From an uncultured Thiotrichaceae bacterium (GTDB lineage Bacteria; Pseudomonadota; Gammaproteobacteria; SZUA-229), in contig CAZHEA010000007.1 of assembly GCA_964531165.1 (NCBI GenBank), positions 2,956-66,955 of the forward strand: a stretch of DNA of 64,000 nt, written 5' to 3'. The notes under the pieces are model-generated. The model saw only the letters and a program-made list of their open reading frames with translations. It did no database searches and had not been told where the DNA came from. Shown piece by piece: positions 8,565-63,407 of this stretch; position 1 is the stretch's first letter, and every line of letters starts with the position of its first letter. A program made the translations under genes and the position numbers.

Positions 8565-8927
8565 TTGAACCCTTCATCCCAGTCTTTAGCTGATATTTTC
8601 AACGACCTACCTGAGAAAGATCAAACTACGTTATTTGAATTCGCTGAATTTTTAAAATCTCGTGCACCCGCTCCTATATCAAAAATAACGGAACCATTGG
8701 GTATTCTCAGACCGGAAGAAGAAAGTGTGGTTGCGGCCATTAAACGCCTGAAGAAAAACTATCCGATGATTCCACAAAAAACATTATTAAATGAAACATC
8801 TGAATTTATGATGCAACACATGATGCAGGGTAAAAAGGCAAAAGATGTTATCGATGAAATGGAGATGCTTTTTGAAAACAAGTTTCAAATGTCAATGGGT
8901 ACAACTCAGTCAGGCGATACACAGTGA
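8565..8927 (+). CDS. Hypothetical protein
   Basis: 120-aa ORF. Its stop overlaps the start of the downstream transporter gene. No recognisable motif. Confidence 0.35.
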   Translation: MNPSSQSLADIFNDLPEKDQTTLFEFAEFLKSRAPAPISKITEPLGILRPEEESVVAAIKRLKKNYPMIPQKTLLNETSEFMMQHMMQGKKAKDVIDEMEMLFENKFQMSMGTTQSGDTQ

Positions 8928-9982
8928 TTGATGTATTACGCGGTTGGTATAACAAGCATTTTTCAGATCCGCAGGCGGTTATTCTTGCATTAATGCTGAT
9001 ATTTGGTTTTATGCTAATAGCTTTTATGGGAAATGTATTAACACCGGTCATTGCAGCGGTAGTGATTGCCTATGTGCTTGAAGGTGTAGTACGTAAACTC
9101 TGCCATTTCAAAATTCCACGTTTATTATCAGTCACAATTGTTGTTGTTGGTTTTGTGGTTTTACTATTGATATTAATGCTCGGCTTGTCGCCATTAATTT
9201 ATCAACAGTTATCGCAATTTTTTACCGAGTTTCCCAATATGCTAAGCAAAGGGCAGACCTTATTAATTAGCCTGCCGGAAGATTATCCGTTTATTTCCGA
9301 GTCACAGATAGAAGATATCGTTTCATTGATTAATACAGAATTAGCCTCTGCGGGGCAGGTGGTCGTTTCGCGTTCATTATCTTCAGTGGTTAATTTATTT
9401 ACGCTAATGGTGTATATGGTGGTAGTGCCATTACTGGTATTTTTCTTTCTCAAAGATAAGCAAAGTATTTTACAGTGGTTATGCCATTTTTTGCCTCAGG
9501 AAGATGGTCTGGTTACTAAAGTCTGGCAGGATGTAGATAGAAAAATCGGTAGTTATATTCGCGGTAAATTACTTGAAATTGTGGTGGTGGGTATTGCTAC
9601 TTATATCCCTTTAAAAATACTCGGCTTACAATATGCGGCGTTGCTTTGTCTGTTTGTTGGCCTGTCGGTTATTATTCCTTATGTGGGAGCGATAGCTGTC
9701 ACCATTCCAGTTGCAATACTGGCTTATTTTCAGTTTGGGTTCGGTTATGAGTTTTTATACATTATGCTGGCCTATTTGGTTGTGCAGTTTTTAGATGGCA
9801 ATATTTTAGTACCATTATTGTTTTCCGAGGCGGTAGATATGCACCCGGCGGCAATCATTATTGCAGTGCTGGTATTCGGTGCATTATGGGGGGTGTGGGG
9901 TGTATTCTTTGCGATTCCATTAGCGGCATTAATTCAGGCGGTGATTACGGCGTGGCCTATGCCTGACAGGGCTGTTGAGTAA
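8924..9982 (+). CDS. AI-2E family transporter (UPF0118/PerM/TqsA-like permease)
   Basis: It has 7-8 predicted TM helices. The length and hydrophobic pattern are typical of PF01594. GTG start at 8924. Confidence 0.7.
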   Translation: MIDVLRGWYNKHFSDPQAVILALMLIFGFMLIAFMGNVLTPVIAAVVIAYVLEGVVRKLCHFKIPRLLSVTIVVVGFVVLLLILMLGLSPLIYQQLSQFFTEFPNMLSKGQTLLISLPEDYPFISESQIEDIVSLINTELASAGQVVVSRSLSSVVNLFTLMVYMVVVPLLVFFFLKDKQSILQWLCHFLPQEDGLVTKVWQDVDRKIGSYIRGKLLEIVVVGIATYIPLKILGLQYAALLCLFVGLSVIIPYVGAIAVTIPVAILAYFQFGFGYEFLYIMLAYLVVQFLDGNILVPLLFSEAVDMHPAAIIIAVLVFGALWGVWGVFFAIPLAALIQAVITAWPMPDRAVE

Positions 9983-10240
9983 ATGCTTTGCGGTTATTTA
10001 GTGCGAGACAGGCAATTAAAATAAAATTATTGATGAGCTAAATGTGCAGCGTAATTGTTGCTGGGGCAGGTATCTGGAGCTATTTAATTTCGCCTCTAAA
10101 GCATACCGCGATGATAGTGAGCTTAGTAAACTAAGCTATTTCATCTGTAGGTTCGACGTCATTCGAACCAATTCCGTGGGTTTACTTTGTTGTGTGAATA
10201 AATTTGCACATACATGTTTTACGGGCATTCGGGAGGCGAG

Positions 10241-11005
10241 TTACAATCGTTTTTTTATTCGCTTTTTTTGTTGTTTCAAGCGTCGCTGCCACCACATCCA
10301 TAAACCACTCAAGCTTAAAAATATCATCAGTATAGCAACACCATCCATAACGTATACACCGAACTTTCCAAAGATGCGACCGCTGTGAATGTCCAGAATA
10401 ATTCGCTCTAGTGGTAAACCTTCGCCCCGGTATTGTTTAAGTAAATCCTGTTTTAAGTTTTCACCTGGCTGAATGTGTGGTGACCATGTCATCTGTATGG
10501 GGGCAATGGCCTGCCAGTTAATAATATCTTCATCAGCCTGCCACATACTCTGATCCATCATTTTTATAATGGCTTTGTTTTCGAGCATGCCGACGTGTTC
10601 TATTTCAGTGTTTTGTGCCAGCGGGTAACGATCAATTAGTTCACCGTCGCGGCTGAGCAAAATAACATCGCGGGACAATACCAGTATGATAATTTCACCT
10701 GCATTGGTCACGCCTCTAATCTGTTGTTTATCGTTGAGAAGTTTTTTATTGTCGAAATAAATTTGTTGATCGAGCTGGGTGAAAATATGTTTTTGCGTTC
10801 GATAACTGATAGCTGCTTGTTGCGGGTTAATTTCATACAGGCTAAGCACCAGCGCATTATTGATTTTAGTTTTGTTGAGTTGTAAACCGTCAGTGTGATT
10901 AAGCATAATGCCGGTCACGGCCAGTAATATAATAAACAGTACCAGTAGCAGGCCAAATCGCCTGTGCCATAAAAACGCCGGAAATTTCTTTTTATGGCGG
11001 GTCAT
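10241..11005 (-). CDS. PepSY-associated TM helix protein
   Basis: N-terminal WHRRFGLLLVLFIIL (PepSY-TM HRW-G motif) and a C-terminal second TM with DIHSGRIFGKFGVYVMDGVAILMIF. It overlaps the upstream FMN-binding gene by 4 nt. Confidence 0.55.
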   Translation of the reverse strand: MTRHKKKFPAFLWHRRFGLLLVLFIILLAVTGIMLNHTDGLQLNKTKINNALVLSLYEINPQQAAISYRTQKHIFTQLDQQIYFDNKKLLNDKQQIRGVTNAGEIIILVLSRDVILLSRDGELIDRYPLAQNTEIEHVGMLENKAIIKMMDQSMWQADEDIINWQAIAPIQMTWSPHIQPGENLKQDLLKQYRGEGLPLERIILDIHSGRIFGKFGVYVMDGVAILMIFLSLSGLWMWWQRRLKQQKKRIKKRL

Positions 11006-11520
11006 TGTTTGGCACGCAGTTGTTGGTCGAGGTAAAGTGCAATGCGGGAAATTTTGGTAATGGCTCGTACTGAAAGTGTAGCACCTGAAATCCCATCTAT
11101 GTGGCGATCCAGCTGTAAGTCATTATTTATGCTTGCCTGTAGAAATTGTTTGGTGAAAAAGTCATGACGTATTTCATCGCCGCGGCTTTCACGAAACGCC
11201 AGAACTTTTATGCTTTCAAGTTTGCCGTGGTTGATAACAACGCCAATGGTAATGGGTTTTTCTTTACCAATTTCATCTAATATCCAGGCGGTTTTTTGCT
11301 GCTGTTTCCAGTAGCGTAAACGCAGTTTTCTAAAATCATGTGCGAGAATTTGTTTAATATTTTCACGGTCAGTTTTGGTGAGCCAGAGTGCTTTGGCTTT
11401 AGGTTGATTCTCTGCAAAGGCTAACTGGATAAATGCATCAGGCTGAAGATACTGACCACCAGCGTAAGCCGGTAGTTGTAAGCAGCACAGAACAATAAAA
11501 ATAAAGCGTGTAAAAATCAT
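11002..11520 (-). CDS. Exported FMN-binding domain protein (ApbE-flavinylated type)
   Basis: Signal peptide. It has the GISGATLS motif (the Thr in S-G-A-T is the covalent FMN attachment site in NqrC/RnfG-type FMN_bind domains). Confidence 0.6.
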   Translation of the reverse strand: MIFTRFIFIVLCCLQLPAYAGGQYLQPDAFIQLAFAENQPKAKALWLTKTDRENIKQILAHDFRKLRLRYWKQQQKTAWILDEIGKEKPITIGVVINHGKLESIKVLAFRESRGDEIRHDFFTKQFLQASINNDLQLDRHIDGISGATLSVRAITKISRIALYLDQQLRAKQ

Positions 11521-11599
11521 GGGGGCGCATCATACCAGTTGTTGGCGAAGTGAGAAACCTACGTGAGCATAATGCATTCGCAGGTTTCTCAGTCGGCAT

Positions 11600-12850
11600 T
11601 TAGAACTGGTAGCCGACTCCCAGCATAAAGCCATCGTCATCCGTGCCTGCCTTATCCAGTAACTGATAGTTTGCTTTCACAACCACATCTTCATGGGGCC
11701 AGTAGCTAAAGCCAAAATCGGTCTGATTGCGCTGTGTATCATTCGCGCTGTTAACCATATTATCCCAGCTGCTCTGGCGTGCATATATACCCCACTGAGA
11801 CGTAAATTTGTAAGAGGGCTCTACATACCAGCCGCTTTGCTCGTCAGAGCCTAGGCTTTTCGGTCCGTTACCGCTTAAGTCCCAGCTCGCATACAGAGCG
11901 CGTAATGCAAACGGTCCGGTTAGCCAAACCGCATGAGTCTCCAACAGGCTCGCACTTCCCGCAGCGGCATCGGTGCTTTGAGTAATATCACGTTGGTACT
12001 GCATAGTCGCGCCCAGTTCTACGCCTGCTGCACCCGTCCATTTCAGGCGTGCTGTGTAGGCAGGGTCCTGCATTGGCGCTTTGCTTACACTGGTACGACC
12101 ACCACGAACAGTATAGTCATCGCCAACCTGTAAGCCGGAATGCATGGCCAGATCATAGCTAAATGCGTCGCCAAAACGGCCGCTGAAGCTCACGCCACCT
12201 TCACGCCAGGTGGTGGGAATAATGTACTTTTCTACATTATTACGCTCAACACCGTAAAAAGTGGGTGGCTCGTGGGTTTCGTTAACCATTCCAACAGGGA
12301 CCAGAATAATACCTGCACGGACTGAGTTATTGTCACTTACATCAAATTCAAGAAAAGCCTGTTCCATGGAAACTTCGCCAGAGCCTTCACCTTCCGTTTT
12401 AACTTGTGAGTGCTCAATTTCCAGTTCTGACCAGAAGCGAATTTTGTCACTGAACTCATGACCCATGAATAAAATAAAGCGATGCAAGTTAATTATTTTG
12501 GTGCTGTCAGTGTTGATGTAATGCAGTTCACCATAACCACCAATCGTAGTATTGCCTTTAGAGCCATGAGTGCCAAAGGTTTTATCGCGTGCTGTTTCTG
12601 CGCTGCTATGACTGTGTGAAGATTGTTCACCTGACGTATTTTGAGTGGGAGATGTATTTATATTACCTGATTCAAGCATATCTGCTGTGGCTTCCAGACG
12701 CTCTAAAATAATTTTGTTTTCTGCTTTGAGGGCATCAAGCTGTAGTTGAAGACTGTCTGATTCTGCTGAAATGGCATTCGTTGATGCCAGTAATAGTGCG
12801 CTGGCAATGGCACTTTTTAAGGTAGATGATACAAATTTACGGCTTTTCAT
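11600..12850 (-). CDS. Outer-membrane porin with N-terminal coiled-coil (DcaP-like family; tentative)
   Basis: Signal peptide. A ~45-aa coiled-coil (LQLQLDALKAENKIILERLEA) is followed by a beta-barrel ending in ..GVGYQF. Confidence 0.5.
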   Translation of the reverse strand: MKSRKFVSSTLKSAIASALLLASTNAISAESDSLQLQLDALKAENKIILERLEATADMLESGNINTSPTQNTSGEQSSHSHSSAETARDKTFGTHGSKGNTTIGGYGELHYINTDSTKIINLHRFILFMGHEFSDKIRFWSELEIEHSQVKTEGEGSGEVSMEQAFLEFDVSDNNSVRAGIILVPVGMVNETHEPPTFYGVERNNVEKYIIPTTWREGGVSFSGRFGDAFSYDLAMHSGLQVGDDYTVRGGRTSVSKAPMQDPAYTARLKWTGAAGVELGATMQYQRDITQSTDAAAGSASLLETHAVWLTGPFALRALYASWDLSGNGPKSLGSDEQSGWYVEPSYKFTSQWGIYARQSSWDNMVNSANDTQRNQTDFGFSYWPHEDVVVKANYQLLDKAGTDDDGFMLGVGYQF

Positions 12851-18042: not shown

Positions 18043-18729
18043 TTAAAACATTAAGCCGACATCAAAGCGAAAATTAGTAAAGCCAGAAGAGCTAGAGGCC
18101 TGACTATAATCAATCCATTTTTTGCCTGCGGTAAAGCGTAAGAATACATTGTCTTTTACGTCAAATCGAAACCCGGCACTGGCGCCGTAGGTGAATTCGG
18201 TTGAAGTGAGGGTTGGCTGAAATGTGTCGCAGATATAGCCCCACCACGGGTCATACCAGCAGCCGGTTTGTGGCGGGCCGGTTGGGATATTAGTGTCGAT
18301 ATAAGTCAGACCCGCAGAAACACCAACGAAGGGCGTAAAGCGTTTTTTCATGAAATTATAAATGCCGGTAAATACCATGCTATTGGAGTACAGGTTGCCA
18401 TAGACTGTTTCTTTATTACCGTTTTCCAGCACCCGCGTGCCCGAATAGTTAACATCGCCCCAGTTAAGGTCAAAATCTAATGCCCAGTGTTCATCGAAAT
18501 TGTAGCCAACACCAAAACCGAAAGCATAATCCTCATTAATGGTTGCATCAGAGCCACCATCAAAATTAATTTGCTTTGATTCGATATACTTGGTCTGAAA
18601 TGAAATCTCCCAGCGATCTTTACGGTCGCTTAATGACATAATGTCCGCACTGAATGCGACACCAGAAAAAGCCATTAAAAACAGATAAAGGATTGGGCGT
18701 TGTAATGATGAGTTTAAAAAATGTTTCAT
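18043..18729 (-). CDS. Small outer-membrane beta-barrel protein (OmpW/OmpA-barrel-like)
   Basis: Signal peptide and a ~200-aa alternating beta pattern ending ..DVGLMF (C-terminal Phe). Confidence 0.5.
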   Translation of the reverse strand: MKHFLNSSLQRPILYLFLMAFSGVAFSADIMSLSDRKDRWEISFQTKYIESKQINFDGGSDATINEDYAFGFGVGYNFDEHWALDFDLNWGDVNYSGTRVLENGNKETVYGNLYSNSMVFTGIYNFMKKRFTPFVGVSAGLTYIDTNIPTGPPQTGCWYDPWWGYICDTFQPTLTSTEFTYGASAGFRFDVKDNVFLRFTAGKKWIDYSQASSSSGFTNFRFDVGLMF

Positions 18730-18925
18730 TGGTGTAAAACCTGCGATGTGTCAGTGTTAATAAAAAGCGCATATATCGCCCATCATATCAGACGTCAGTA
18801 TACCTTAAATTTACAGCGGGTGGACTTTACAGGTGTTTAAATTTATTATTGAAATTCAACTGCTTTTTATTCTATACCCATAAAAAGCGTCGGATTATGA
18901 TTGATAAAAACAACAGGCTTTTTAT

Positions 18926-27530: not shown

Positions 27531-28006
27531 AAAAGCGTTTCATAATGGTTATATTTAGACCTTGTATATTACTGGTTTCAATGGCGTTGTGCTAGCTATA
27601 GAGCGGAGTTTATTAACAATGATGATCTGCGGGAAATTTGCGGCTGACTATGTGCAGGTGAAATGCGGCATTAACATAGCTGTCTTTCAGCTCATTTGAA
27701 TATAGGTTTGTTTCTTCAGCTGGAGCGGGATTAATTAATATAGACGAACTTTTGAAAACATATATCCTTTGATTTTAAGTGGTTGTTAATATCAATGAAT
27801 TTAGCTATTAAATTCCGACTTCTGACTGGCTTTGGTGCTTCGGAAGTATGCATTATCAGAAAAATTGTCGGGTAAATTTATAGTTTTTTTGAATAGTTGT
27901 TCATTGTTAATAAAGTTAATCCATGTGAAGTAATTCTAAATATGGATTTAATCACAATATGTACTATTCTTTTTTAAGTGATTTATAAAGTCAACCTACT
28001 GGAGTT

Positions 28007-28861
28007 TTGTTAATGAGCTTTTTACGTGTGCATACACTAATTATCTGGTTTGCTGCTATGACAAGTAGCTTACCTGTTCTGGCAGATATTAAAATGGGCG
28101 TGTTTCCTCGCCGACCCATTGCAGTTACAAATAAAATTTTTAAACCACTGGCTAAACAGTTGTCAAGTGAGTTGGGTGAGCCGGTTCATCTCGTTGTAGC
28201 TAAAAACTTTAAAGCATTCTGGAAAGGAGTCGAAAACAAAGAATATGATCTTGTGCATTTTAATCAGTATCACTATTTATTAAGTCATAAAAATCAGGGC
28301 TATAAAGTGATCGTGGTAAATGAAGAGTTCGGTAGTAGTAAAATAGCGGGTTCACTATCAGTGCGAGTAGACAGTGGTATTAATAGTGTGGCGGACTTAA
28401 AAGGTAAGACTATTCTGTTTGGCGGTGGTAAGAAGGCTATGGGTAGTTATATTGCGCCAACGTCTATTCTCAAAAAAGCGGGGTTGGTTGCGGGTCAGGA
28501 TTATACGGTGAAATTTTCCAAAAACCCACCAAGTGCAGTGATAGGTGTATTTAATAATGCAGCAGAAGCAGCGGGAGCTGGTAATGTTATTTTGAAGGTT
28601 AAAGGAGTGCAAAAAAAGATTGATGTCTCGCAAATAAAGATTTTGTCTGAGAGTGAGTCGTTTATTCAACTACCCTGGGCGGTAAGAGATGATATGTCTG
28701 CAGATAAAGCCAGCAAGATCCAGGCTATTATGACGTCATTAAAAGGCACTAATGATGCATTACTGAAATCTAGTCGAGTCACTAATTTTATTAAAGCGTC
28801 GGATGGCGATTTTGATAAAGTTAGAGAAATTGTTAAAAATACATTAGGTGAAAGCCTGTAA
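28007..28861 (+). CDS. Periplasmic substrate-binding protein, PhnD/SsuA-like (phosphonate/phosphite-type PBP fold)
   Basis: Signal peptide. PBP type-2 fold resemblance (Phosphonate-bd family). No ABC permease or ATPase genes are adjacent. Confidence 0.6.
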
Positions 28862-28910
28862 TAAAATAATTAACCCACTGTTTAAAATCAGTGGTTTTTT
28901 TCAAGGTTTA

Positions 28911-30545
28911 ATGATGTTCAACTTATTAAATGGTTTAAGTCTTTCTGTAAAATTTTCACCACCTATACTCGCCGCAACGTTAATTATTCTTGTAATAGGT
29001 TCGGTTTTTTTAGTCGATGTGGTAAAGAAATCGACAATACAGCAGACAGATATTGCACGTAATGCACTTTTAAAAGAGCAAAAAGTGGCGGAAGAAAATC
29101 AGCTTAAAGCCTTGCTTTCAAAAGCGGATAGTTTAGGTGTGTTTATGTCTAAAACTGCACCTGACTTGATACTTTCTTATGATTTTTCTAGTCTTCAAAG
29201 CTATCAGGAAAGTGTTATTAAAGATCCAGATGTTGCTTATGCCGCTTATATTAAACCGGATGGTGAGGCTTTTATAAAATACATCTTGCCTGATGATAAA
29301 ACGGATATTATTGAAAAAAAATATAAAGTTATATCTGACGATGAGCATATTGGTACGGTATTGCTCGGCATGTCGAAAGCGGGTTTGTTAGCAAATATAA
29401 ATTTGAGTAATCAGCGAATACAAACGGCTGTTGAGAATGTTGAAGCACATGCTGATGAAGGTATTTCAGAATTTATTTCAGTAATTTTTGTTAATGTTAC
29501 GGTAGTTCTTTTTACAATTTCAATTATTGTATATATGTTATTTCGTTTTTTAGTGCTCATTAGATTAAAAGAAACTAAAGATTTGATATTGCAATTATCG
29601 GATGGTAACGGAGATTTAACACAGCGCTTGCCGGTGACAAATAACGATGAAGTCAGTCAGCTTTGTCTTGCTGTTAACCAGTTCATTGCACAGTTGCAGG
29701 ATATGATTGCCAGTATAGCTGAGGGTGTCCAGACATTGACTCACGAGTCTGAGTTGCTGAGTCAAAATGCCAGTGAGTTATCGATAAGTTCTGACACACA
29801 GAACATGGAAACCTCACAGGTGGCAGCCGCGATGAATCAGATGACGGCGACGGTACTTGAGGTGGCAAACAATGCTAGTAATGCAGCGACTGCCGCTGAA
29901 GATTCGGAAAATGAAACCAGTTTGGGAAAACAGGTTATTCAAAAAACCATGTTGTCTATTAATGAACTGGTATCAGAAGTTGAAAATGCATCTCAGGTAA
30001 TACACACACTTGAATCTGATACGGATAGTATTGGTGGTGTTCTGGATGTTATTCGAGGTATAGCAGAGCAGACAAATTTACTGGCACTTAATGCTGCTAT
30101 CGAAGCGGCGCGTGCGGGCGAACAAGGTCGTGGTTTTGCCGTGGTTGCTGACGAAGTTCGTGTCTTAGCGAGTCGTACACAAGTGTCAACAGCTGAAATA
30201 CAGGAAATGATAGAGAAACTACAAAGTGGTTCTCAACACGCGGTGAGTGTAATGGAAGCCAGTAGTATTAAAGCGCATAACACAGTTGAACAAGCGTCTC
30301 GGGGTGGCGTTTCGTTAGAAAATATATCTGTTTCAGTTGGTGCAATTAATGAAATGAATACTCAAATTGCGATTGCTGCTAAAGAGCAGACGGAGGTAGC
30401 AGAAGAAATTAATCATAATATAGTCACCATTAAAACAATTAGCGAGAAAACCTCTGAAGGTGCTCAAAAAAGTGCACTATCAAGTAAAAGTCTATCTGAA
30501 CTGGCTGTGCATCTTAATAGTCTGGTTAATCAGTTTAAAATTTAA
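28911..30545 (+). CDS. Methyl-accepting chemotaxis protein (two TM, ~160-aa periplasmic domain, HAMP, MA domain)
   Basis: Highly conserved MCP signalling hairpin [35 protein letters not shown]. The ATG at 28911 has an AAGG RBS. The ORF-track GTG at 28848 overlaps the SBP gene. Confidence 0.8.
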
Positions 30546-30771
30546 GTAAACTAGATAATATAATTTGCGGTTATTGCTGTCTATTAACTAATAGATAGGC
30601 TCTATTATCAATGTCCTGATTTCATCTAATCAGTGATTCCTATGCTTCTAAAGGTATTCTCGAGGCGTTGTTCATAATGTACGACGCTTCTTTTGATTGG
30701 CTTTCACAAAATCGTAACAATTTTGACGTACTTTATATCTACCGGTTAATTTTCTCAGTGGATATATAGTA

Positions 30772-32082
30772 ATGCGATGTGTTTTTATTTTAGTTTCCTT
30801 ATTTTTGATTCAGCCAGCACAGGCTGATGAAAACCTGTTCAGGCTGCATGGTTCAAACACTATTGGTGCAAAGCTGGCTCCGGCTCTGGTACGCGGCTGG
30901 TTACAGGATAACGGCTTTACCCAAATTCATACGCTGGAAAATAACCGCCAGGAAGTGACTATTGTGAGCCGTAATAAAGCGGGTGAGCGAAAAGTGGTTG
31001 AGATTAAGTCTCATGGATCTGCTACGTCTTTTGATTCACTAAAAAGGCAGGCTGCCGAAATTGGGATGTCGTCACGGCCGATCAAAAAAAAGGAAAACAA
31101 CACACTGAAAGCATTTGGTGAAATGACGCGTCAAGGTGTGGAGTTTGTTATTGGGCTGGATGGGATTGCGGTGATTGTGCATTCGAAAAATCCACTCATG
31201 CAGCTGGAAAAAAGTGTAATTAGAAAAATTTTTAGTGGTGAAATCACCCGCTGGAAAACGATTGATAAAAATCTTGATGGAAAAATACAGGTGTATGCCA
31301 GAGATAATAAGTCGGGTACTTTTGATACATTTAAAGCACTGGTAATGGGTAAAAAAACATCATTAGTAAAAACAGCTTTGCGTTATGAGTCAAATGATAA
31401 ATTATCAGATGATGTTGCTAATGATCGTTATGCTATTGGATTTGTGGGTCTGCCTTCGGTGCGCCATGCAAAATCACTGGGTGTCGCTGAGTCAGGTACT
31501 GAGGCTAAGCAGCCGCTAAAATTTGATGTGGCAACTGAAGATTATGCGTTAGCACGGCGACTATTTTTATATGTGCCTGCGCTAAATTCCAGTCTGCATG
31601 TTAAGTCATTTATTGATTTTTCTGAGTCTGCGGCGGGGCAGACAATTGTCGATGAAAATGGATTTATTTCTCAAAATTTAACGCTGAAATCAGTTAAGTC
31701 CGATAGTCGGTTTCCAGAAGAGTATTTAAAATTAACCCAAAATAGTCAGCGCCTGTCGTTAAATTTTCGATTTAAAAAAGGCACAACTAAGCCGGATAAT
31801 AAAGCCATGCGTGATATTCAACGGCTGGTTGAATTTTTATCCAGAAAGGAAAATAAAAGAAAGCGAATTATGTTGTTTGGATTTGCAGAATCAAGCGAGT
31901 CGCATCCCGCATTCAGTATTGATCTGTCTACATACCGGGTCGACTGGGTTGCCGATTTACTGGTGCACAATGGGCTCGATCCGGTGCGCGTACGCGCTTA
32001 TGGAGATGCTATTCCGGTGGCATCAAATGAAGATGCCGGCGGTCGCCATAAAAATCGTCGGGTTGAAGTGTGGTTGCGTTAA
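30772..32082 (+). CDS. Fusion protein: PstS-like phosphate-binding (PBP) domain + C-terminal OmpA/MotB peptidoglycan-binding domain
   Basis: Signal peptide. N-terminal LHGSNTIGAKLAPALVRGW matches the PstS/PBP_like_2 family. The C-terminus (RVDWVADLL...AYGDAIPVASNEDAGGRHKNRRVEVWLR) is OmpA_C-like. Confidence 0.6.
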   Translation: MRCVFILVSLFLIQPAQADENLFRLHGSNTIGAKLAPALVRGWLQDNGFTQIHTLENNRQEVTIVSRNKAGERKVVEIKSHGSATSFDSLKRQAAEIGMSSRPIKKKENNTLKAFGEMTRQGVEFVIGLDGIAVIVHSKNPLMQLEKSVIRKIFSGEITRWKTIDKNLDGKIQVYARDNKSGTFDTFKALVMGKKTSLVKTALRYESNDKLSDDVANDRYAIGFVGLPSVRHAKSLGVAESGTEAKQPLKFDVATEDYALARRLFLYVPALNSSLHVKSFIDFSESAAGQTIVDENGFISQNLTLKSVKSDSRFPEEYLKLTQNSQRLSLNFRFKKGTTKPDNKAMRDIQRLVEFLSRKENKRKRIMLFGFAESSESHPAFSIDLSTYRVDWVADLLVHNGLDPVRVRAYGDAIPVASNEDAGGRHKNRRVEVWLR

Positions 32083-56626: not shown

Positions 56627-57628
56627 TCAGTTCTCAGAAGCCAGCTCAATTCGATTCCGGCCATTTTCCTTAGCTTTATAAAGCGCTTTGTCCGCATATT
56701 CAATTAATTGTTTAATATTGTATTCGCTACCCTTGTCATAGGTAGCAACACCCATACTGACGGTTACACATTCAGCAGCGGTGGAGTGATTGTGTTCAAT
56801 ACAGGCCTCTCTTAATGACTTTTCAAAACGACTTGCAACTTTAAGCGCATTGTTTTCAGTCGTGCCGGGCAACAGTATCACAAACTCTTCGCCGCCATAT
56901 CGAGCGGCCATATCATGTGGGTTGAAACAGGCGTCATCTAATAGCTTAGCGACTTTTTTTAAACACTCATCCCCTAACTGATGACCATAGTTATCATTAA
57001 AAAATTTAAAGTAGTCTATATCGATTAAGATCAAAGTGATGGGAGTCTGGTTGGTTCTGGCATTCTCCATTTCCATCTCTAGTTGTTCATCAAAGTGACG
57101 ACGATTCGAAATACCGGTTAAACCATCCTGCATAGAAAGTTTGTGAAGTTTTTTATTGCTGGCTTCAAGTTGTTTTTTGAGCTGGCTCAGTGCATAAAAA
57201 GCAGAATCACGTTCTTGTTGTAGAATATAGTTTTTGGCATGGGCTCGAATGCGTGCAATCAGTTCAATTTCATCGGGTAGCTTAACCAGGTAATCGCTGG
57301 CACCGTAACTGAATGCTTCGCTCTTGGTGATTGCATCATCCTTAGATGAGAGGACGATGACGGGAATATCGCGAGTTTCATTATTGGCTTTATAAAACCT
57401 TAACAGAGTCATGCCATCAGCATCCGGCATAACCAGATCCTGTAAGATAATAGTTGCATCAAGTTTTACTGCGCTTTCAATTGCCAGAGTAGGGTCTTCA
57501 ATATAAGTTAGTTCCATGTCTGACTCACTGGCGAGCATGCGCCGGATGCCTTCAGCAATGATAGGCTGGTCATCAACCAGTATTATGCGAATACTCTTAT
57601 CTACATGCGTGTTATTTTGATTGCTCAT
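56627..57628 (-). CDS. wspR: Response regulator-diguanylate cyclase (REC + GGDEF), WspR-like
   Basis: REC domain (ILVDDQP...DLVMPDADG) and a GGDEF domain with GGEEF and an upstream RxxD I-site candidate. It is the last gene of a wsp-type operon. Confidence 0.75.
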   Translation of the reverse strand: MSNQNNTHVDKSIRIILVDDQPIIAEGIRRMLASESDMELTYIEDPTLAIESAVKLDATIILQDLVMPDADGMTLLRFYKANNETRDIPVIVLSSKDDAITKSEAFSYGASDYLVKLPDEIELIARIRAHAKNYILQQERDSAFYALSQLKKQLEASNKKLHKLSMQDGLTGISNRRHFDEQLEMEMENARTNQTPITLILIDIDYFKFFNDNYGHQLGDECLKKVAKLLDDACFNPHDMAARYGGEEFVILLPGTTENNALKVASRFEKSLREACIEHNHSTAAECVTVSMGVATYDKGSEYNIKQLIEYADKALYKAKENGRNRIELASEN

Positions 57629-57710
57629 AATTCATTTCTGTATAAAAGTCCGTGATTAAAAAAATCATATTTACAACTTGACTGGGCATTTCCTGATATC
57701 CAGTTTAAGG

Positions 57711-58703
57711 TTATGATGACGGTATATTTTTAATTATTTCATCAGCTATTTTTTCTATATCCAGCTCAACTCTAACTGCATTGAGTTCATTAGCGGCTTT
57801 AGGCATCCCATAAACGGCACAGCTTTTCTGATCCTGTGCAATCGTTAACATACCCCGGTTATAAAAAGATAATAGACCATTTGCACCATCTCGTCCCATG
57901 CCGGTAAGTAAAACACCGATTAATTTATTAGGCCAGTGGGTCACTGCGCTTTCAAAAAACACATCGACCGAGGGGCGGTACGGATAATCGACAGGAATAT
58001 CCGTATATTCAAAGCAGCCTGTCTTATTAATAATAAGGTGGTCGTTGCTGCATGCGATATAAACATGGCCGGGTTTTGGTACTTGTTTATTAATAGCAAT
58101 TTCAACGTTTATATCAACCTGAGCATCTAACCATTGTGCCATGCCCTGGCTAAACTGATTATCCATGTGTTGAATAACAACCCAGATAGCCCGTGTATTA
58201 ACCGGTAGTGTTTTAAGTATAGTCAGTATCGCAGCCGGTCCGCCAGAAGATGAGCCAATAGCCACTAGCGGTAAATTCTTTAGAGAGTCGGCGAGTTTTA
58301 TCTTATCTATGCGGTTAGAGCTTTCGTGTAATTTTTTTATATTTAAAATTTTCCTTTTAAGTTCTAATATTTTTTCAGGCTGTTGGTTTGAAGGCTCTGT
58401 AAATACGTCTAATGCACCCGCAGACATAGCATTAAATATCTCTGATGTATTATATGTGTCAGGTTGGCTGGTAACAATAATAGTGGTTGGCGTAGTGTTC
58501 ATTATGTTTTTAATGGTTTCACTGGCTTTGGTGTTTTTTTGCTTCAGCTGTACCAATAACAGGTCGGGATGATCGGTGGAGCACAGCGCTAATGCCTCTT
58601 TTTCGTTATTGGATGTCCAGCAAGTGATGTAACCCAGATCATTAATTAAAAGATTAAAAAGGCGGATGACATCAGGGTCAGTATGTAAAATCGCAATGCG
58701 CAT
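57711..58703 (-). CDS. wspF: Chemotaxis response regulator protein-glutamate methylesterase (CheB/WspF-like)
   Basis: REC + CheB methylesterase domain. Confidence 0.75.
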   Translation of the reverse strand: MRIAILHTDPDVIRLFNLLINDLGYITCWTSNNEKEALALCSTDHPDLLLVQLKQKNTKASETIKNIMNTTPTTIIVTSQPDTYNTSEIFNAMSAGALDVFTEPSNQQPEKILELKRKILNIKKLHESSNRIDKIKLADSLKNLPLVAIGSSSGGPAAILTILKTLPVNTRAIWVVIQHMDNQFSQGMAQWLDAQVDINVEIAINKQVPKPGHVYIACSNDHLIINKTGCFEYTDIPVDYPYRPSVDVFFESAVTHWPNKLIGVLLTGMGRDGANGLLSFYNRGMLTIAQDQKSCAVYGMPKAANELNAVRVELDIEKIADEIIKNIPSS

Positions 58704-58749
58704 AATATTTATAATTCAACCTGATGATATCGTGTCTTTAATCGTGTTG

Positions 58750-61467
58750 TCATAATGGTGAACCGATTAAGTCAAATACAGCATCTAGTAACGTATCGTC
58801 ATGAAAGCTGCCTTTTGTTAAGTAGTAATCGGCGCCAATTTCCAGCCCCATCTGTTTATCTTCCGGGCGATCTTTATAAGAAACCATCATCACTGGAATA
58901 TTACGGAATGTTGAATCATTTTTTATCAGGCGGATTAGCTCAAAGCCGTTCATGCGAGGCATATCTATATCAGATATTATCAGGTCATAGTTACCGCTTC
59001 GTATGGCATTCCATCCATCAACACCGTCAATGGCAATATCCACAAGGTAACCTCTGGATTCAAGTAGTTTCTTTTCTATCTCTCGTACTGTTAATGAATC
59101 ATCAACAACCAGTACGCGTTTATATGACTTATTATCAAGCTTGTTGTCTGTTCCAACTTTATATAAATCTCTACCGTTGATGATGTCCTGAATACTCTGC
59201 TGTAAATCGTCAATATCAAAAACTAATACCGGCTCCCCGTCATCGGTGATGGCAGCAGCACTGATGTCTTTTATCTTTCCTAGCTTTTTGTTTATCGTGC
59301 GTAGCGCCAGTCCTCTCTCGCCAATTATTTTATCGACTACCAGGCCATAGCTGATATTCCAGTCACCAATAATAATGATGGGTATTTGCTGGTTTTCGGT
59401 GGTACATTGTGAAATTTCTAGAATTTGAGCACAGTGAATGAGGCCGATATGTTTGTCATTTATCGTAATGTATTGCTTGTCTTCGAAAATACTGATGTCC
59501 TGCCGGTCAATTGTTACCAAACTTTGAATTTTAGCTAGTGGAAAGGCATAAAGCTCGTCATTGATACTGACCAGTAAACTGCGGATAACTGAAAGCGTCA
59601 GCGGCAGTTCCATACTTATTTGCATGCCCTGGTCTAATTCGGTGTCAGCATGCAGTTTGCCGCGCACGTCCTGCAGTGCACTGTGCACAATGTCCAGACC
59701 TACACCACGTCCTGAAATTTCAGTGACTTCATTGCGGGTTGAAAAAGACGGTAAAAATAAAAAGTCCAGTAACTCAGATTTAGATAAGTTATCAGCCATA
59801 CTCGAGCTGACCAGTTCTTTTTCTAAAATTTTATGGCGTAAATTTTCAATATCAACACCACGGCCATCGTCTTTTACCTGAATGCTTAAGCGACCGGACT
59901 GATGGCTGGCACTGACGGTAATCGTACCGGTTTCATCCTTGCCTTTCTGACGGCGCACCTCAGGCGTCTCAATTCCATGGTCGATTGCATTACGAATAAT
60001 ATGATTAAGTGGAGCATCAAGTTTTTCTAAAATTTCTCTATCAACAGGTGTATCTTCGCCCTTTATTTCAAGTTTAACTTTTTTATTTAACGAATTTGCT
60101 ATATCACGAATAAGGCGTTTATACCCCTGGGTACTATCACTGAATGGGCGCATTCGACTGGCTATGATTTCGAAGTTAATTTGTGAATTGATGCTGGATG
60201 AGCGTCGTTCAAAATTATCAATGCTAATCAGGTTCGATGTGATGTCATCTCGATATACCTGTGCATTATGTTGAATATGTGTAATTAGTTTGTTTTCAAG
60301 TTCAGAATGCCGGCCGTCATCAATAATGCTGCGCAAACGATCTATTTGAGACAGCATATCATTATGCTTTCGTTTAAGTACTAGCATTGACTCAGCGTAT
60401 TGGCGTATCCAGTTTGAAGAAACCGTGAGCTCACCGGCAAGACTGACTAGCTTGTTAATACGTTGAGTGCTGACGCGTACCATATTGTCAGTGTTGGCGC
60501 TCTTGTGCTCAGCGGGTTGATCATCGGTTGTTTGAGTTGAGTCTAAAGTAACTAGCTCAAAATCATTGTTATTTTGAATAAGGTCAAGATTGGTAATGAA
60601 TTGATTCAGGTAGTCGGTGCTGTCCTGAGTCCACTGAGCGATAGCCTGAGGCGCAATACTTTCAATTTGTTTTAACAGATCAACGCAGTTTAAAATTTGA
60701 TCGATAATTTTTTTATGTAGAACAATAGTATGCTGCTGCGCTACAACAAACACATCTTCCATGGCATGAGCGAGCTTAACGACTCCATCAATGCCTATCA
60801 TTCTCGCCGCTCCTTTTATAGAGTGTGCGGCACGCATCAATGCCTCTAGTTGTCCATCAATATGGTTAGTTGCTGATTCAATTTCCAGCAAATTGTAATT
60901 AATAAGCTCCAGGCTGTTATGTAACTCTGTGCAAAATAAGCCAAACATATCTACGTCGATTGATTCAGCAGTTGTAAAAAATAGCGGTTGAGCTATTTGT
61001 TTATCAGTTATATCGTGTTTAGCTTTCAGGGAGTCGGTATCTGTAGCGCTTAGCGTTAAGTTACTTGATAATTGGTCAAGATTGTCGATGCAGGTTTTTA
61101 TATGGTTAATGATGTTTTGTTCTGGTGTTGTAAGTTCAGCGGCTGATAACTGAGATAACTCGATAAACAGTTCGATGGTCTGATTGAGTGTTGTTGTATC
61201 AGATTGTTGCAATGGGTAAGTACCACTTTGCATGCTCGATAAAGTGCTTTCCAGCGACTTTATGAGAGGAAGAATAATATCGATATGTACAAGGTTAGCT
61301 GCGCCTTTAATGGCACGAATGTGGTTGATTATCAACTCATAGTCGTTTAACAGGTCATTGCTGTTATGCATGACCTGTAGAGTTTTGGTTATTTTATCTG
61401 ATTGAGTGATAACTTCAGACTTAAATAAATCCAGCATTGACTCATTAATTGTATTTTTTTTATTCAT
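58750..61467 (-). CDS. wspE: Hybrid chemosensory histidine kinase CheA-CheY (WspE-like)
   Basis: Hpt domains, an HATPase_c domain, a CheW-like domain and a C-terminal REC domain (VLVVDDSLTVRE...DIDMPRMNG). Confidence 0.8.
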   Translation of the reverse strand: MNKKNTINESMLDLFKSEVITQSDKITKTLQVMHNSNDLLNDYELIINHIRAIKGAANLVHIDIILPLIKSLESTLSSMQSGTYPLQQSDTTTLNQTIELFIELSQLSAAELTTPEQNIINHIKTCIDNLDQLSSNLTLSATDTDSLKAKHDITDKQIAQPLFFTTAESIDVDMFGLFCTELHNSLELINYNLLEIESATNHIDGQLEALMRAAHSIKGAARMIGIDGVVKLAHAMEDVFVVAQQHTIVLHKKIIDQILNCVDLLKQIESIAPQAIAQWTQDSTDYLNQFITNLDLIQNNNDFELVTLDSTQTTDDQPAEHKSANTDNMVRVSTQRINKLVSLAGELTVSSNWIRQYAESMLVLKRKHNDMLSQIDRLRSIIDDGRHSELENKLITHIQHNAQVYRDDITSNLISIDNFERRSSSINSQINFEIIASRMRPFSDSTQGYKRLIRDIANSLNKKVKLEIKGEDTPVDREILEKLDAPLNHIIRNAIDHGIETPEVRRQKGKDETGTITVSASHQSGRLSIQVKDDGRGVDIENLRHKILEKELVSSSMADNLSKSELLDFLFLPSFSTRNEVTEISGRGVGLDIVHSALQDVRGKLHADTELDQGMQISMELPLTLSVIRSLLVSINDELYAFPLAKIQSLVTIDRQDISIFEDKQYITINDKHIGLIHCAQILEISQCTTENQQIPIIIIGDWNISYGLVVDKIIGERGLALRTINKKLGKIKDISAAAITDDGEPVLVFDIDDLQQSIQDIINGRDLYKVGTDNKLDNKSYKRVLVVDDSLTVREIEKKLLESRGYLVDIAIDGVDGWNAIRSGNYDLIISDIDMPRMNGFELIRLIKNDSTFRNIPVMMVSYKDRPEDKQMGLEIGADYYLTKGSFHDDTLLDAVFDLIGSPL

Positions 61468-61482
61468 TAGTTTTATACATAT

Positions 61483-62142
61483 TTAAATATTTTTATGTAA
61501 AGCGCTAAAAACCAGATCGCTGTTCAGTATTCCGACGTCGGTGTTTTTATGACGAATGATGCCCTTTATAAAACAGGATGTGTTTTCGTTTATTGTAGAT
61601 GGTGTGGTTTGTATCTCATCTATATCGTAGTGAATGATTTCTTTTACTTCAGTTACCGGAAAAGCAAATGACTCACCGTCGTCCTCAATTACGATATATC
61701 TTTCATTGGTATATTTGCTGGATACCTCACTTTTGTTTATTTTAAATAAATAGCCAAGTGAAACATTAAGAATAAGCTCACCGTTAACGTTTACCAGTCC
61801 GCGTAGAACATTGTTGTTTATATGCGGTAGTGAATGATGTTTGTCACAATGAGTGATCTCTTTAACGAATTTTGATGGCAGTGCAAACCACTCATCACCC
61901 ATGCGAAAAACCAGTGCAGATTTAAGATCAATGTTCTTATCAAATCGTCGCTGCTCCAGATTGGCTTGCCATTCATCCAGATAGCTCTGTTCTGCTGGTC
62001 GGTCAAGAATTCGACTTCCAGCCTGACTAAAAATATCGCAGTTGTGACAATGTGTTAGTTCTTTTAGTCGTTCACAACGTGGTATCTGGTCTCCCCAAAC
62101 ACCTTTTTTATTCCAGCAGTCATCTATATTAATTGTAGTCAT
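61483..62142 (-). CDS. wspD: CheW-like coupling protein (WspD-like)
   Basis: CheW domain (FAFPVTEVKEIIHYD). It overlaps wspC by 4 nt. Confidence 0.7.
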   Translation of the reverse strand: MTTINIDDCWNKKGVWGDQIPRCERLKELTHCHNCDIFSQAGSRILDRPAEQSYLDEWQANLEQRRFDKNIDLKSALVFRMGDEWFALPSKFVKEITHCDKHHSLPHINNNVLRGLVNVNGELILNVSLGYLFKINKSEVSSKYTNERYIVIEDDGESFAFPVTEVKEIIHYDIDEIQTTPSTINENTSCFIKGIIRHKNTDVGILNSDLVFSALHKNI

Positions 62143-63407
62143 GTTTTATTTTCATTAGCAGTAAATACCCGATTTGCTCTTTGCTTGAGTAGTGCTGAGT
62201 TTTTTAAGTCACCAATGTCTTCCAGTAAAAGTGCGAGATACATTAGTGACTCATAGTGTTTCGGGTCAAGAAAAAGGCATTTTCTAAAATATGCCTCAGC
62301 ATTTTTTTTATCATCCTGCTGGCTGAAAACTAATCCAGACAAAAACAGCACGTCTGCATTCTCACCATTGGTTTTTATATAGAGTTGGCAGGCATCTTGT
62401 GCCTGTGAAAGCTTATCCGCATCAGCTAGACATTTTATGTCTGTTAATGATATGTTAAGAGCCCGCTGATTGCTTGATATAGTGTCTTTTTCAGTCTTTT
62501 GTATCAGCGACTCAAAGTTGACTTTTTTAACCGGAATTTTAATTTTGGGTTCAGGTTTGGAGTGGATTTCACCTTTAAGGTCTGTTGTTGGTGCATCTGT
62601 GAAATCAGGATGACTGTGCTTAATTAAGGCAAAGGCCTGCTCGCAGCCGGTGTTCTTAAATAGTTCTGTTGGTACAGCGCCAAATTCAGAGTGGCCTATA
62701 AATAGATAACCATCTGAGCTTAAAAAATCAGCAAGCTGATTGAATGCAATTTTTTTAGTGTCCATATCAAAATAGATCAATAAATTTCGACATAAAATAA
62801 AATCAAATTTATTATGTAATTCAGCATTTTTGTGTAAAATATTTAGACGATAAAATTTTACTTTCTCACGTATGCCCTGATTTATTTCATAGGTACTGCC
62901 ATTGTATTTAAAATGTACTTTTTGGTAACGAGGGTAATGTTTTCCGCGAAATGAATTATTTCCATATATACCCTGTTGTGCATGTTGTAATGCGCTGTTG
63001 CTGATATCAACGGCATCAATTTCAAATGTGGATTGAATAATGCCTTTGTCTATAAGAAACATAGCTAAAGAGTAGGGCTCTTCGCCAGTTGAACTCGGCA
63101 GGCTTAATATTTTAAATCGTTTTGACCTGTTTATTAATAATTGTTGTTGTATTTTATTATAGATTATTTCAAATGGACGAATGTCGCGAAAAAACCAGGT
63201 TTCTGGAATGACGGTGATTTCCAGTAATTCATTTAACTCATCTTTATTGTTATTTATCAGGCTTAAGTAATGCTCACAATCATCAATGCCACACTGGTGC
63301 ATACGCTGATGAATGATGCTTTCAATCGTATTGTCACCAATCGTACTGCTATCCAGTCCAATTTGGTTTTTAATAATCTGCTTGATTTTAGTGAGCGGCG
63401 TTCGCAT
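62139..63407 (-). CDS. wspC: Chemotaxis protein methyltransferase CheR with C-terminal TPR (WspC-like)
   Basis: CheR SAM-MTase core (ETWFFRD, ILSLPSSTGEEPYSLAM) and a C-terminal TPR. Confidence 0.75.
   Translation of the reverse strand: MRTPLTKIKQIIKNQIGLDSSTIGDNTIESIIHQRMHQCGIDDCEHYLSLINNNKDELNELLEITVIPETWFFRDIRPFEIIYNKIQQQLLINRSKRFKILSLPSSTGEEPYSLAMFLIDKGIIQSTFEIDAVDISNSALQHAQQGIYGNNSFRGKHYPRYQKVHFKYNGSTYEINQGIREKVKFYRLNILHKNAELHNKFDFILCRNLLIYFDMDTKKIAFNQLADFLSSDGYLFIGHSEFGAVPTELFKNTGCEQAFALIKHSHPDFTDAPTTDLKGEIHSKPEPKIKIPVKKVNFESLIQKTEKDTISSNQRALNISLTDIKCLADADKLSQAQDACQLYIKTNGENADVLFLSGLVFSQQDDKKNAEAYFRKCLFLDPKHYESLMYLALLLEDIGDLKNSALLKQRANRVFTANENKT

Follow-up and report, generated by a model that had tools for sequence, protein, structure and literature searches.

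A 64-kb stretch of DNA from an uncultured Thiotrichaceae bacterium (assembly GCA_964531165.1, contig CAZHEA010000007.1), analysed here as a whole and referred to as the window, carries three consecutive plus-strand genes encoding a periplasmic substrate-binding protein (SBP), a methyl-accepting chemotaxis protein (MCP), and a fusion of a PstS-like domain to an OmpA-type domain (PstS::OmpA). The locus raises the question of whether these genes form one system for sensing or retaining phosphorus compounds, as an earlier note had proposed, and of what an SBP does beside a chemoreceptor. Our analysis suggested that the locus probably holds two independent units. Unit A, spanning ~27.9-30.55 kb, would be a bipartite chemoreceptor cassette in which a transporter-less secreted SBP is followed by its MCP. 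Unit B, the PstS::OmpA gene (30772-32082), would stand at its ancestral position with an upstream region of its own, and would lie beside Unit A only through insertion of the cassette between Unit B and xseB.

All three open reading frames (ORFs) reported earlier were recovered as real genes at the coordinates given for them, and their domains were found by Pfam and NCBIfam. The features on which the analysis relies are as follows.

28007-28861, plus strand: SBP ORF as originally listed
28013-28861, plus strand: SBP with revised start, 282 aa from ATG 28013, with a Sec signal peptide and the PF12974 fold
28848-30545, plus strand: MCP ORF as originally listed, 565 aa
28911-30545, plus strand: MCP with revised start, 544 aa from ATG 28911, with a first transmembrane helix (TM1), periplasmic sensor, second transmembrane helix (TM2), HAMP domain and signalling domain
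29019-29477, plus strand: periplasmic sensor domain of the MCP, ~150 aa, reduced PAS/Cache (PDC)-like, proposed docking site of the SBP
29565-29702, plus strand: HAMP domain (Pfam PF00672), residues 240-285 of the 565-aa ORF
29976-30440, plus strand: core of the MCP signalling domain (Pfam PF00015), residues 377-531 of the 565-aa ORF
28875-28901, plus strand: intercistronic hairpin CCACTG-N8-CAGTGG followed by T7, inside the SBP-MCP gap
30772-32082, plus strand: PstS::OmpA ORF, 436 aa, secreted PstS-family domain plus OmpA_C-like peptidoglycan-binding domain
27604-30640, no strand assigned: segment missing from syntenic relatives, comprising SBP-MCP and the upstream region (boundaries approximate)

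The translation start of the SBP is probably ATG 28013, because its homologues are 282 aa long, and that of the MCP is probably ATG 28911, because its orthologues are 541-544 aa long. With these starts the two genes are therefore separated by 49 nt and do not overlap; the start/stop proximity described earlier held in so far as the genes are close, and the apparent contact between them disappeared.

The conservation of the SBP-MCP pair was evaluated in other genomes. A scan of one genome per species gave 79 SBP loci at 42-77% identity, and the orthologous set consisted of 34 usable loci from different species with SBPs 56-77% identical to that of the window. An MCP gene lies directly 3' of the SBP gene in 28 of the 34, and the encoded MCPs are 37-50% identical to the window MCP in the N-terminal sensor and 48-63% identical in the signalling domain. 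The surrounding genes differ wholly between loci (PBP1B; Mfd; RND efflux with leuCDB; aconitase with purB), and therefore the unit that travels is the SBP-MCP pair. One plausible ABC ATPase was found in 30 orthologous loci (375 kb in total). In the window, where the neighbours of the cassette are housekeeping genes, no ABC ATPase or permease gene was found anywhere within the 64 kb, in agreement with the earlier observation that none lies near the SBP. Moreover, no phn, ptx, htx or pst genes were present in the window or in the inspected orthologous loci. The adjacency in most orthologous loci, in unrelated contexts and without ABC genes, supports the idea that the orphan SBP serves as an indirect sensor for the adjacent chemoreceptor, and on this comparative basis the SBP is most likely a dedicated signalling binding protein feeding that MCP.

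PstS::OmpA does not travel with the pair. Neither its PstS part nor its OmpA part had a match in 82 other SBP loci (L002-L083; tblastn, 1e-5), and the gene is absent also from L088 and L089. Two syntenic relatives, L084 and L085, carry PstS::OmpA orthologues (76% and 68% identity, respectively) in the order bamC, lactamase_B, folE2, PTPS, dxs, ispA, xseB, PstS::OmpA, radA, CNNM, ccsA ... ffh, which matches the window except that SBP-MCP is missing and xseB is followed by PstS::OmpA after ~210 nt. In blastn comparisons with these relatives, homology ends at ~27603 and resumes inside the PstS::OmpA gene; the DNA alignment shows conservation of the block on the xseB side as far as ~27610. A ~35-nt AT-rich block upstream of PstS::OmpA, starting at ~30640-30700 (TTTCACAAAATCGTAACAATTTTGACGTACTTTAT), is also conserved with L084 and L085; it is a candidate promoter or operator of PstS::OmpA itself and does not resemble a Pho box. 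Since the relatives have PstS::OmpA beside xseB without SBP-MCP, the comparison argues that the pair entered the region between xseB and PstS::OmpA as a segment of ~3 kb, by insertion or translocation, and that PstS::OmpA, which is ancestral at this site, is a chance neighbour forming an independent unit. The earlier assignment of PstS::OmpA to a common module was thus contradicted twice, by its absence from the other SBP loci and by its holding the same slot without SBP-MCP in two relatives.

The boundary of the inserted segment was also inspected. Between xseB and the SBP gene, an inverted repeat with two perfectly matching 14-nt copies (TTTATTAACAATGA / TCATTGTTAATAAA) occupies 27609-27622 and 27901-27914, with 278 nt between the copies, and begins exactly at the synteny break with the relatives. 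A third copy with one mismatch is located at 18751-18764, just upstream of an ORF at 18043-18729, so that three matches compare with 0.09 expected. The repeat could serve as an operator, or it could delimit a small element that was inserted here. A search around the inserted segment gave neither flanking direct repeats nor other marks of mobile elements. Horizontal transfer was also considered from base composition (40.5% GC for PstS::OmpA, 37.3% for the cassette, and 47-49% for the flanks) and was dropped, since the ancestral PstS::OmpA gene is low in GC too and the low value of the cassette is not decisive.

The predicted nature of Unit B agreed with the earlier description of a PstS-like domain fused to an OmpA-type domain: PBP_like_2 (PF12849) matched at 2e-24 (87 bits, cutoff 27) and OmpA (PF00691) at 5e-10 (40.1 bits, cutoff 27.2). 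In NCBIfam, the protein scored 154 bits against the PstS-family model TIGR02136 (cutoff 206.6) and matched many OmpA-like anchors. As read directly from the sequence, its signal peptide is of type I and lacks a lipobox. Homologues of the same architecture and about 436-445 aa in length numbered 2959 at E<=1e-10, and NCBI names the family 'phosphate ABC transporter substrate-binding/OmpA family protein'; in architecture, length and motifs, the protein of the window is typical of this family. Among 22 family members, the motifs GSNT, HGSxT, SR and RxxxSGT of the PstS part are invariant, which presumably correspond to the ligand residues of E. coli PstS. The invariants of the OmpA part are R389, D391 and NRRVE (N428-E432), with Glu or Asp at the position of the usual 'GHTD' Asp. 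It is plausible from these motifs that PstS::OmpA is a phosphate-binding domain tethered non-covalently to peptidoglycan. The tethering proposed earlier is therefore retained as plausible on the conserved motifs, although it applies to a separate and already annotated family.

The genomic context of PstS::OmpA was examined in four orthologue contexts, and no pstCAB genes were found there or in the window. In one of them (L087, 10678-13743), an orthologue with 50% identity lies 2.4 kb upstream of phoB-phoR-pstS; this is the sole hint of the phosphate (Pi) regulon among the four. A literature search on PstS-OmpA fusions returned nothing relevant, and the family appears uncharacterised there.

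Regulatory sites were searched next to both units. No Pho box (CTGTCAT-N4-CTGTCAT, an enterobacterial consensus only) was found at <=3 mismatches in 27532-28012 or 30546-30771; at this threshold the whole window contains 11 Pho-box-like matches, none of them upstream of 28007 or 30772, where the earlier note had suggested looking for such sites. No plus-strand sigma-28 promoter site was found upstream of the SBP gene, a generic promoter and terminator scan did not rise above shuffled sequences, and an Rfam scan of the whole window gave no match. The hairpin between the SBP and MCP genes was reported as a terminator-like site in the scan, with a minimum free energy of -8.9 kcal/mol. Many orthologues carry a hairpin in this gap; a small hairpin with a G-rich loop (for example GCCAAGGATGGC, GCCATGGATGGC, GGACAGGGATGTCC) is present in L002, L009, L010, L011, L012 and L033, whereas the window gap has another hairpin followed by a T-run. 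The hairpin may act as a partial terminator or mRNA stabiliser that gives an excess of SBP.

The MCP has the domains expected of a transmembrane chemoreceptor, with Pfam matches to HAMP (1.5e-7) and MCPsignal (1e-39). Its cytoplasmic part aligned end to end with CtpM-type MCPs in NCBIfam (6e-105, under the equivalog cutoff), and because this alignment is gap-free we infer an F6-like length class. The N-terminal ~215 aa had no Pfam match, and a word-indexed protein search with the N-terminal region returned nothing; the N-termini of relatives gave weak matches to sCache_3_2 and CHASE8 (Pfam). An exhaustive phmmer search with the sensor domain recovered 210 representative clusters at E<=1e-3 among 1.84 billion, most of them MCP-sized. 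An AF2 model built on these matches reached a pLDDT of 96.5. In it, TM1 continues as a long periplasmic helix; a short helix and three strands come next, and a second long helix leads into TM2. The model shows ~150 aa between the two transmembrane helices, close to the periplasmic domain of ~160 aa claimed earlier. Foldseek placed the sensor among single PAS/Cache (PDC) domains, where the extracellular domain of WalK and CdgS9, a periplasmic domain of the LapD type (TMt 0.70), matched best, ahead of KinD and DctB. WalK and LapD dock periplasmic proteins on such a domain (YycH/I and LapG, respectively). The WalK/LapD-like fold fits a role of the sensor in docking the SBP and is no proof of it.

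The same SBP clade is also connected to other signalling outputs. The distant set comprised 38 loci with SBPs 42-53% identical to that of the window, where the next gene usually starts ~10-40 nt after the SBP match and encodes a transmembrane protein of 600-1000 aa. By Pfam, this downstream protein contains HAMP in 32 of the 38 loci, GGDEF in 21 (22 by motif), EAL in 20, HisKA/HATPase in 12-13 (mostly hybrid kinases), and MCPsignal in three; a motif-based classification of the output of each locus agreed with the Pfam counts. The N-terminus of several of these partners is 24-34% identical to the sensor region of the window MCP. Furthermore, single metagenome-assembled genomes (MAGs) hold several paralogous cassettes with different outputs, such as an MCP and a kinase cassette in JAJDNG01 (L022 and L067) and in JASFLF01 (L034 and L079). 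In a Desulfuromonadales MAG (L036), the gene after an SBP orthologue (59% identity) encodes a protein of 995 aa (8742-11729) in which a Phosphonate-bd domain of its own is fused to PAS-GGDEF-EAL, a fused form of the bipartite layout, as in TtrS. Because the same pocket signature pairs with MCP, GGDEF-EAL and hybrid-kinase outputs, the clade probably reads out one ligand class through three signalling modes. The context gave no hint of this ligand, as nothing was recurrent by Pfam among 56 ORFs around 12 kinase-type loci (maximum 3/56).

The SBP itself has the type-II periplasmic binding fold of PF12974, as assigned by Pfam and by Foldseek to PtxB. Its match to PF12974 Phosphonate-bd (8e-48), together with a weak NMT1/SsuA-like match, is in accord with the earlier PhnD/SsuA-like description. 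In NCBIfam, it scored under the cutoffs of TIGR01098 (102.3 bits, cutoff 112) and TIGR03431 (92.5 bits, cutoff 261), and weaker matches were obtained to a putative selenate SBP and to the TtrS N-terminal domain (1e-9). The nearest solved structure is PtxB, both by sequence (E 1.7e-24, 23% identity) and by Foldseek comparison of the SBP model (E 5e-21, TM 0.70-0.75), and the nearest solved relatives are PtxB, HtxB, PhnD, GpxB and ArrX.

The pocket residues known from these relatives were mapped onto the SBP by both pairwise and profile alignments. In Ps_PtxB, the oxyanion is held by Y49, Y94 and S124-T125-S126/H155 ('STS-H'), with a capping Y203 held by D16 (PMC5700983); the AioX pocket consists of Y88, C106, Y131, S161, S163, H192 and D210 (PMC5908839). 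The following replacements were found.

Ps_PtxB D16: SBP R33
Ps_PtxB Y49: SBP F66
Ps_PtxB Y94: SBP I111
Ps_PtxB S124-T125-S126: SBP K/A-A/M-M/G
Ps_PtxB H155: SBP P172
Ps_PtxB Y203: SBP L220

Similarly, the equivalents of AioX Y88, C106, Y131, S161, S163 and H192 are F66, N84, I111, K/A, M/G and P172. These replacements are invariant or nearly so in an alignment of 26 members of the SBP family, and most are invariant too in 62 SBPs spanning all three output classes. R33, F66, Y88, P172 and P173 are identical in 62/62, with H87 kept in 60, L220 in 58, and W222 in 61 of the 62. The pocket set of the clade comprises R33, F66, H82, N84, Q85, H87, Y88, A142, M143, P172, P173, L220 and W222. The genome loci had been retrieved with the peptide patterns KAMGSYIA and [YF]D[LI]VH[YF]NQ, and R33, F66, H87, Y88, P172, P173, L220 and W222 fall outside them. 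As the substitutions are invariant in the clade, also at positions outside the patterns, the pocket looks remodelled and under selection rather than decayed, and the sequence argues that the ligand is not inferable from the family name.

Residue 144 (28442-28444) differs between output classes: it is Gly in all 28 MCP-linked SBPs, whereas SBPs linked to GGDEF proteins or kinases have Met, Gln or Ile there, and it may be a determinant of partner or ligand specificity. In the AlphaFold model of the SBP, pLDDT falls below 50 over residues 172-203 (28526-28621); this segment shows high conservation within the family and starts at P172-P173, the pair replacing the canonical His. The low pLDDT may reflect a shallow alignment or a truly mobile lid.

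The SBP family is well conserved, with more than 120 clusters at >=62% identity, and the clade occurs mostly in sulfur-oxidising Gammaproteobacteria (Chromatiales, Thioalkalispiraceae, Ectothiorhodospiraceae, Sedimenticolaceae and Thiomargarita). PtxB, HtxB and PhnD are its closest relatives by sequence and fold; unlike them, the window SBP has no ABC partner, its Y-Y-STS-H motif and capping Tyr/Asp are all replaced, and its scores lie under the NCBIfam cutoffs. To label members of this clade 'phosphonate ABC transporter substrate-binding protein' is misleading. XAC2383, a PhnD-like periplasmic protein, is a Foldseek neighbour of the SBP (5ub3_B/5ub7_B, E 5e-15 to 1e-14, TM ~0.7), although the two share 14% identity and XAC2383 is not detectable by the sequence profile at E<=1. 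In Xanthomonas, XAC2383 is reportedly the partner of the receptor cyclase XAC2382, a transmembrane signalling protein. Both systems have an SBP gene in tandem with a transmembrane signalling gene, and distant members of the SBP clade precede GGDEF-EAL proteins; the GGDEF output, however, occurs only in those distant members, and the window partner is an MCP.

Another parallel in organisation is the AioX-AioS system, in which AioX, a PF12974 protein, works with AioS, whose periplasmic domain is sCache-like (PMC8050422). In AioX-AioS, as in ArxX and ArrX systems, a transporter-less PF12974 SBP gene adjoins a gene for a transmembrane sensor with an unannotated sCache-like periplasmic domain, and it is the SBP that senses the ligand (PMC8050422, PMC5908839); ArrX and AioX are sequence or structural neighbours of the window SBP. 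In contrast to AioX-AioS, the window output is an MCP and not a histidine kinase, the window SBP shares 12% identity with AioX and does not keep its pocket (N84 stands at the C106 position), and no aio, arx or arr genes lie near the cassette. The sensor kinases TtrS and ThsS (tetrathionate and thiosulfate) likewise use a PhnD-like module for signalling and not for transport, but there kinase and PhnD-like domain form one polypeptide, whereas the window SBP is a protein of its own. Kinases with PhnD-like sensor domains number 838 in PMC5408782.

Chemoreceptors that sense a ligand indirectly through a binding protein are exemplified by BasB-BasT, CosB-CosT, Tar-MBP and CtpL-PstS, and in BasB-BasT and CosB-CosT of Halobacterium salinarum the SBP gene adjoins the transducer gene (PMC8050422). 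The window MCP has the layout of an SBP-dependent chemoreceptor, being transmembrane with a periplasmic domain, HAMP and a signalling domain. The SBP-dependent chemoreceptors characterised in bacteria have 4HB, HBM or dCache sensors and SBPs of other Pfam families, whereas the window sensor is a reduced single PAS-like domain. Most characterised bacterial chemoreceptors that use a binding protein borrow a transport SBP encoded with its transporter, unlike the window SBP, and the known dedicated signalling SBPs serve mainly histidine kinases and c-di-GMP enzymes (PMC8050422). The combination of an MCP with a co-operonic SBP that lacks a transporter has therefore been less well charted. By analogy with these systems, our best reading is that the cassette encodes a bipartite receptor in the manner of AioX/AioS or XAC2383/XAC2382 whose output is chemotaxis, which would extend AioX/AioS-type logic to chemotaxis. 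The family is compact, conserved and tractable in experiments, with a 282-aa SBP carrying an invariant non-canonical pocket and an unannotated sensor domain of ~150 aa, and naming its ligand would reveal what many uncultured sulfur-cycle Gammaproteobacteria navigate towards.

In the proposed mechanism, the SBP would capture a small ligand in the periplasm and close, and the closed form would dock on the periplasmic domain of the MCP. The resulting conformational change would run through TM2 and HAMP to the signalling domain, which would control CheA and hence swimming behaviour, while the intercistronic hairpin probably holds the SBP in excess over the receptor. The docking, the direction of signalling, the chemotaxis output and the role of the hairpin are all steps that we infer.

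Several observations weigh against this interpretation. No downstream MCP was found in six of the 34 orthologous loci, and in one of these (L003/L004, SBP 62% identical) only an MCP signalling-domain fragment of ~63-78 aa is present (9158-9406), where the partner gene appears decayed or interrupted. The scan detected no terminator in the 226 nt that separate the MCP gene from PstS::OmpA, and transcription may therefore read through, which bears on the separation of the two units. The invariance at H82, N84, Q85, A142 and M143 arose partly by construction, because the retrieval patterns cover those positions, and since the SBP model is poor at residues 172-203, the pocket geometry rests on sequence alignment only. 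Moreover, having lost the canonical residues, the SBP could perhaps bind no small molecule.

The ligand might nevertheless be a phosphorus oxyanion (phosphite, phosphonate or a phosphate ester), bound in a non-canonical manner by the same bipartite SBP-MCP receptor. The nearest solved relatives named above all bind phosphorus or arsenic oxyanions, the clade-invariant Arg, Lys and His at pocket positions would suit an anion, and the signalling relative XAC2383 was crystallised with ATP (5ub7 entry). Against this, none of the residues that coordinate the phosphorus oxygens in PtxB, PhnD and AioX is retained, neither the STS-H motif nor the two tyrosines, the SBP falls under both NCBIfam PhnD-type cutoffs, no Pho box was found, and phn, ptx, htx and pst genes are missing from the window and the inspected orthologous loci. 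We consider such a ligand unlikely, and the phosphorus-compound ligand assumed in the earlier note is not supported by the substituted oxyanion site or by the profile scores.

A non-phosphorus ligand relevant to the sulfur-oxidising hosts, for instance a reduced sulfur oxyanion such as thiosulfate or tetrathionate, is suggested by the analogy to ThsS and TtrS, whose sensor domains are PhnD-like, and is put forward as a doubtful candidate. If true, the cassette would provide the first case of a bacterial chemoreceptor that senses such a compound through a dedicated binding protein, with the same sensor wired in paralogous cassettes to c-di-GMP and two-component outputs.

Another explanation is that the SBP-like protein has no small ligand and is a constitutive or redox/pH-responsive accessory subunit of the receptor, comparable to YycH/YycI with WalK or LapG with LapD. 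This would account for the loss of the canonical pocket, and it is in line with the resemblance of the MCP sensor to the WalK and LapD-type domains, which dock proteins, and with the presence of just three strands in that sensor. However, the substituted pocket is strictly invariant and polar or charged (R33, N84, Q85, H87 and Y88), as in a working site, and we regard a ligand-free subunit as quite unlikely.

We also considered an ordinary transport SBP whose ABC partners are encoded elsewhere and which moonlights for, or is co-regulated with, the MCP, as MBP does with Tar and PstS with CtpL. Characterised bacterial chemoreceptor SBPs are mostly transport proteins (PMC8050422), and the view of the genome is limited to 64 kb. 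Nevertheless, essentially no ABC gene was found across the 30 orthologous loci, the SBP adjoins transmembrane HAMP sensors of three output classes, and SBP genes adjoining signalling genes are typical of dedicated signalling SBPs (PMC8050422), which makes a transport function very unlikely.

Finally, a single Pho-controlled module in which the SBP, MCP and PstS::OmpA together sense or retain phosphorus compounds is extremely improbable and appears largely refuted by the comparative data, for although the genes are adjacent on the same strand, bear the Pfam names Phosphonate-bd and PBP_like_2, have no detected terminator in the 226-nt gap, and include one whose distant orthologue lies 2.4 kb from phoB-phoR-pstS, PstS::OmpA is missing from all other SBP loci searched, its syntenic loci lack SBP-MCP, no Pho box at <=3 mismatches precedes either gene, and the SBP is without the phosph(on)ate-binding residues.

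Two further observations concern other parts of the window. A match to Porin_O_P, a phosphate-selective porin family (8.6e-9), was found in a minus-strand ORF at 11600-12850, 15 kb from the SBP-MCP-PstS::OmpA region, and no link between the two was seen. In addition, a Wsp-like chemosensory cluster occupies 56627-63407 on the minus strand; its own MCP would lie past the end of the window, and its genes are as follows.

62139-63407, minus strand: CheR
61483-62142, minus strand: CheW
58750-61467, minus strand: hybrid CheA with Hpt, CheW-like and receiver domains
57711-58703, minus strand: CheB
56627-57628, minus strand: receiver-GGDEF protein

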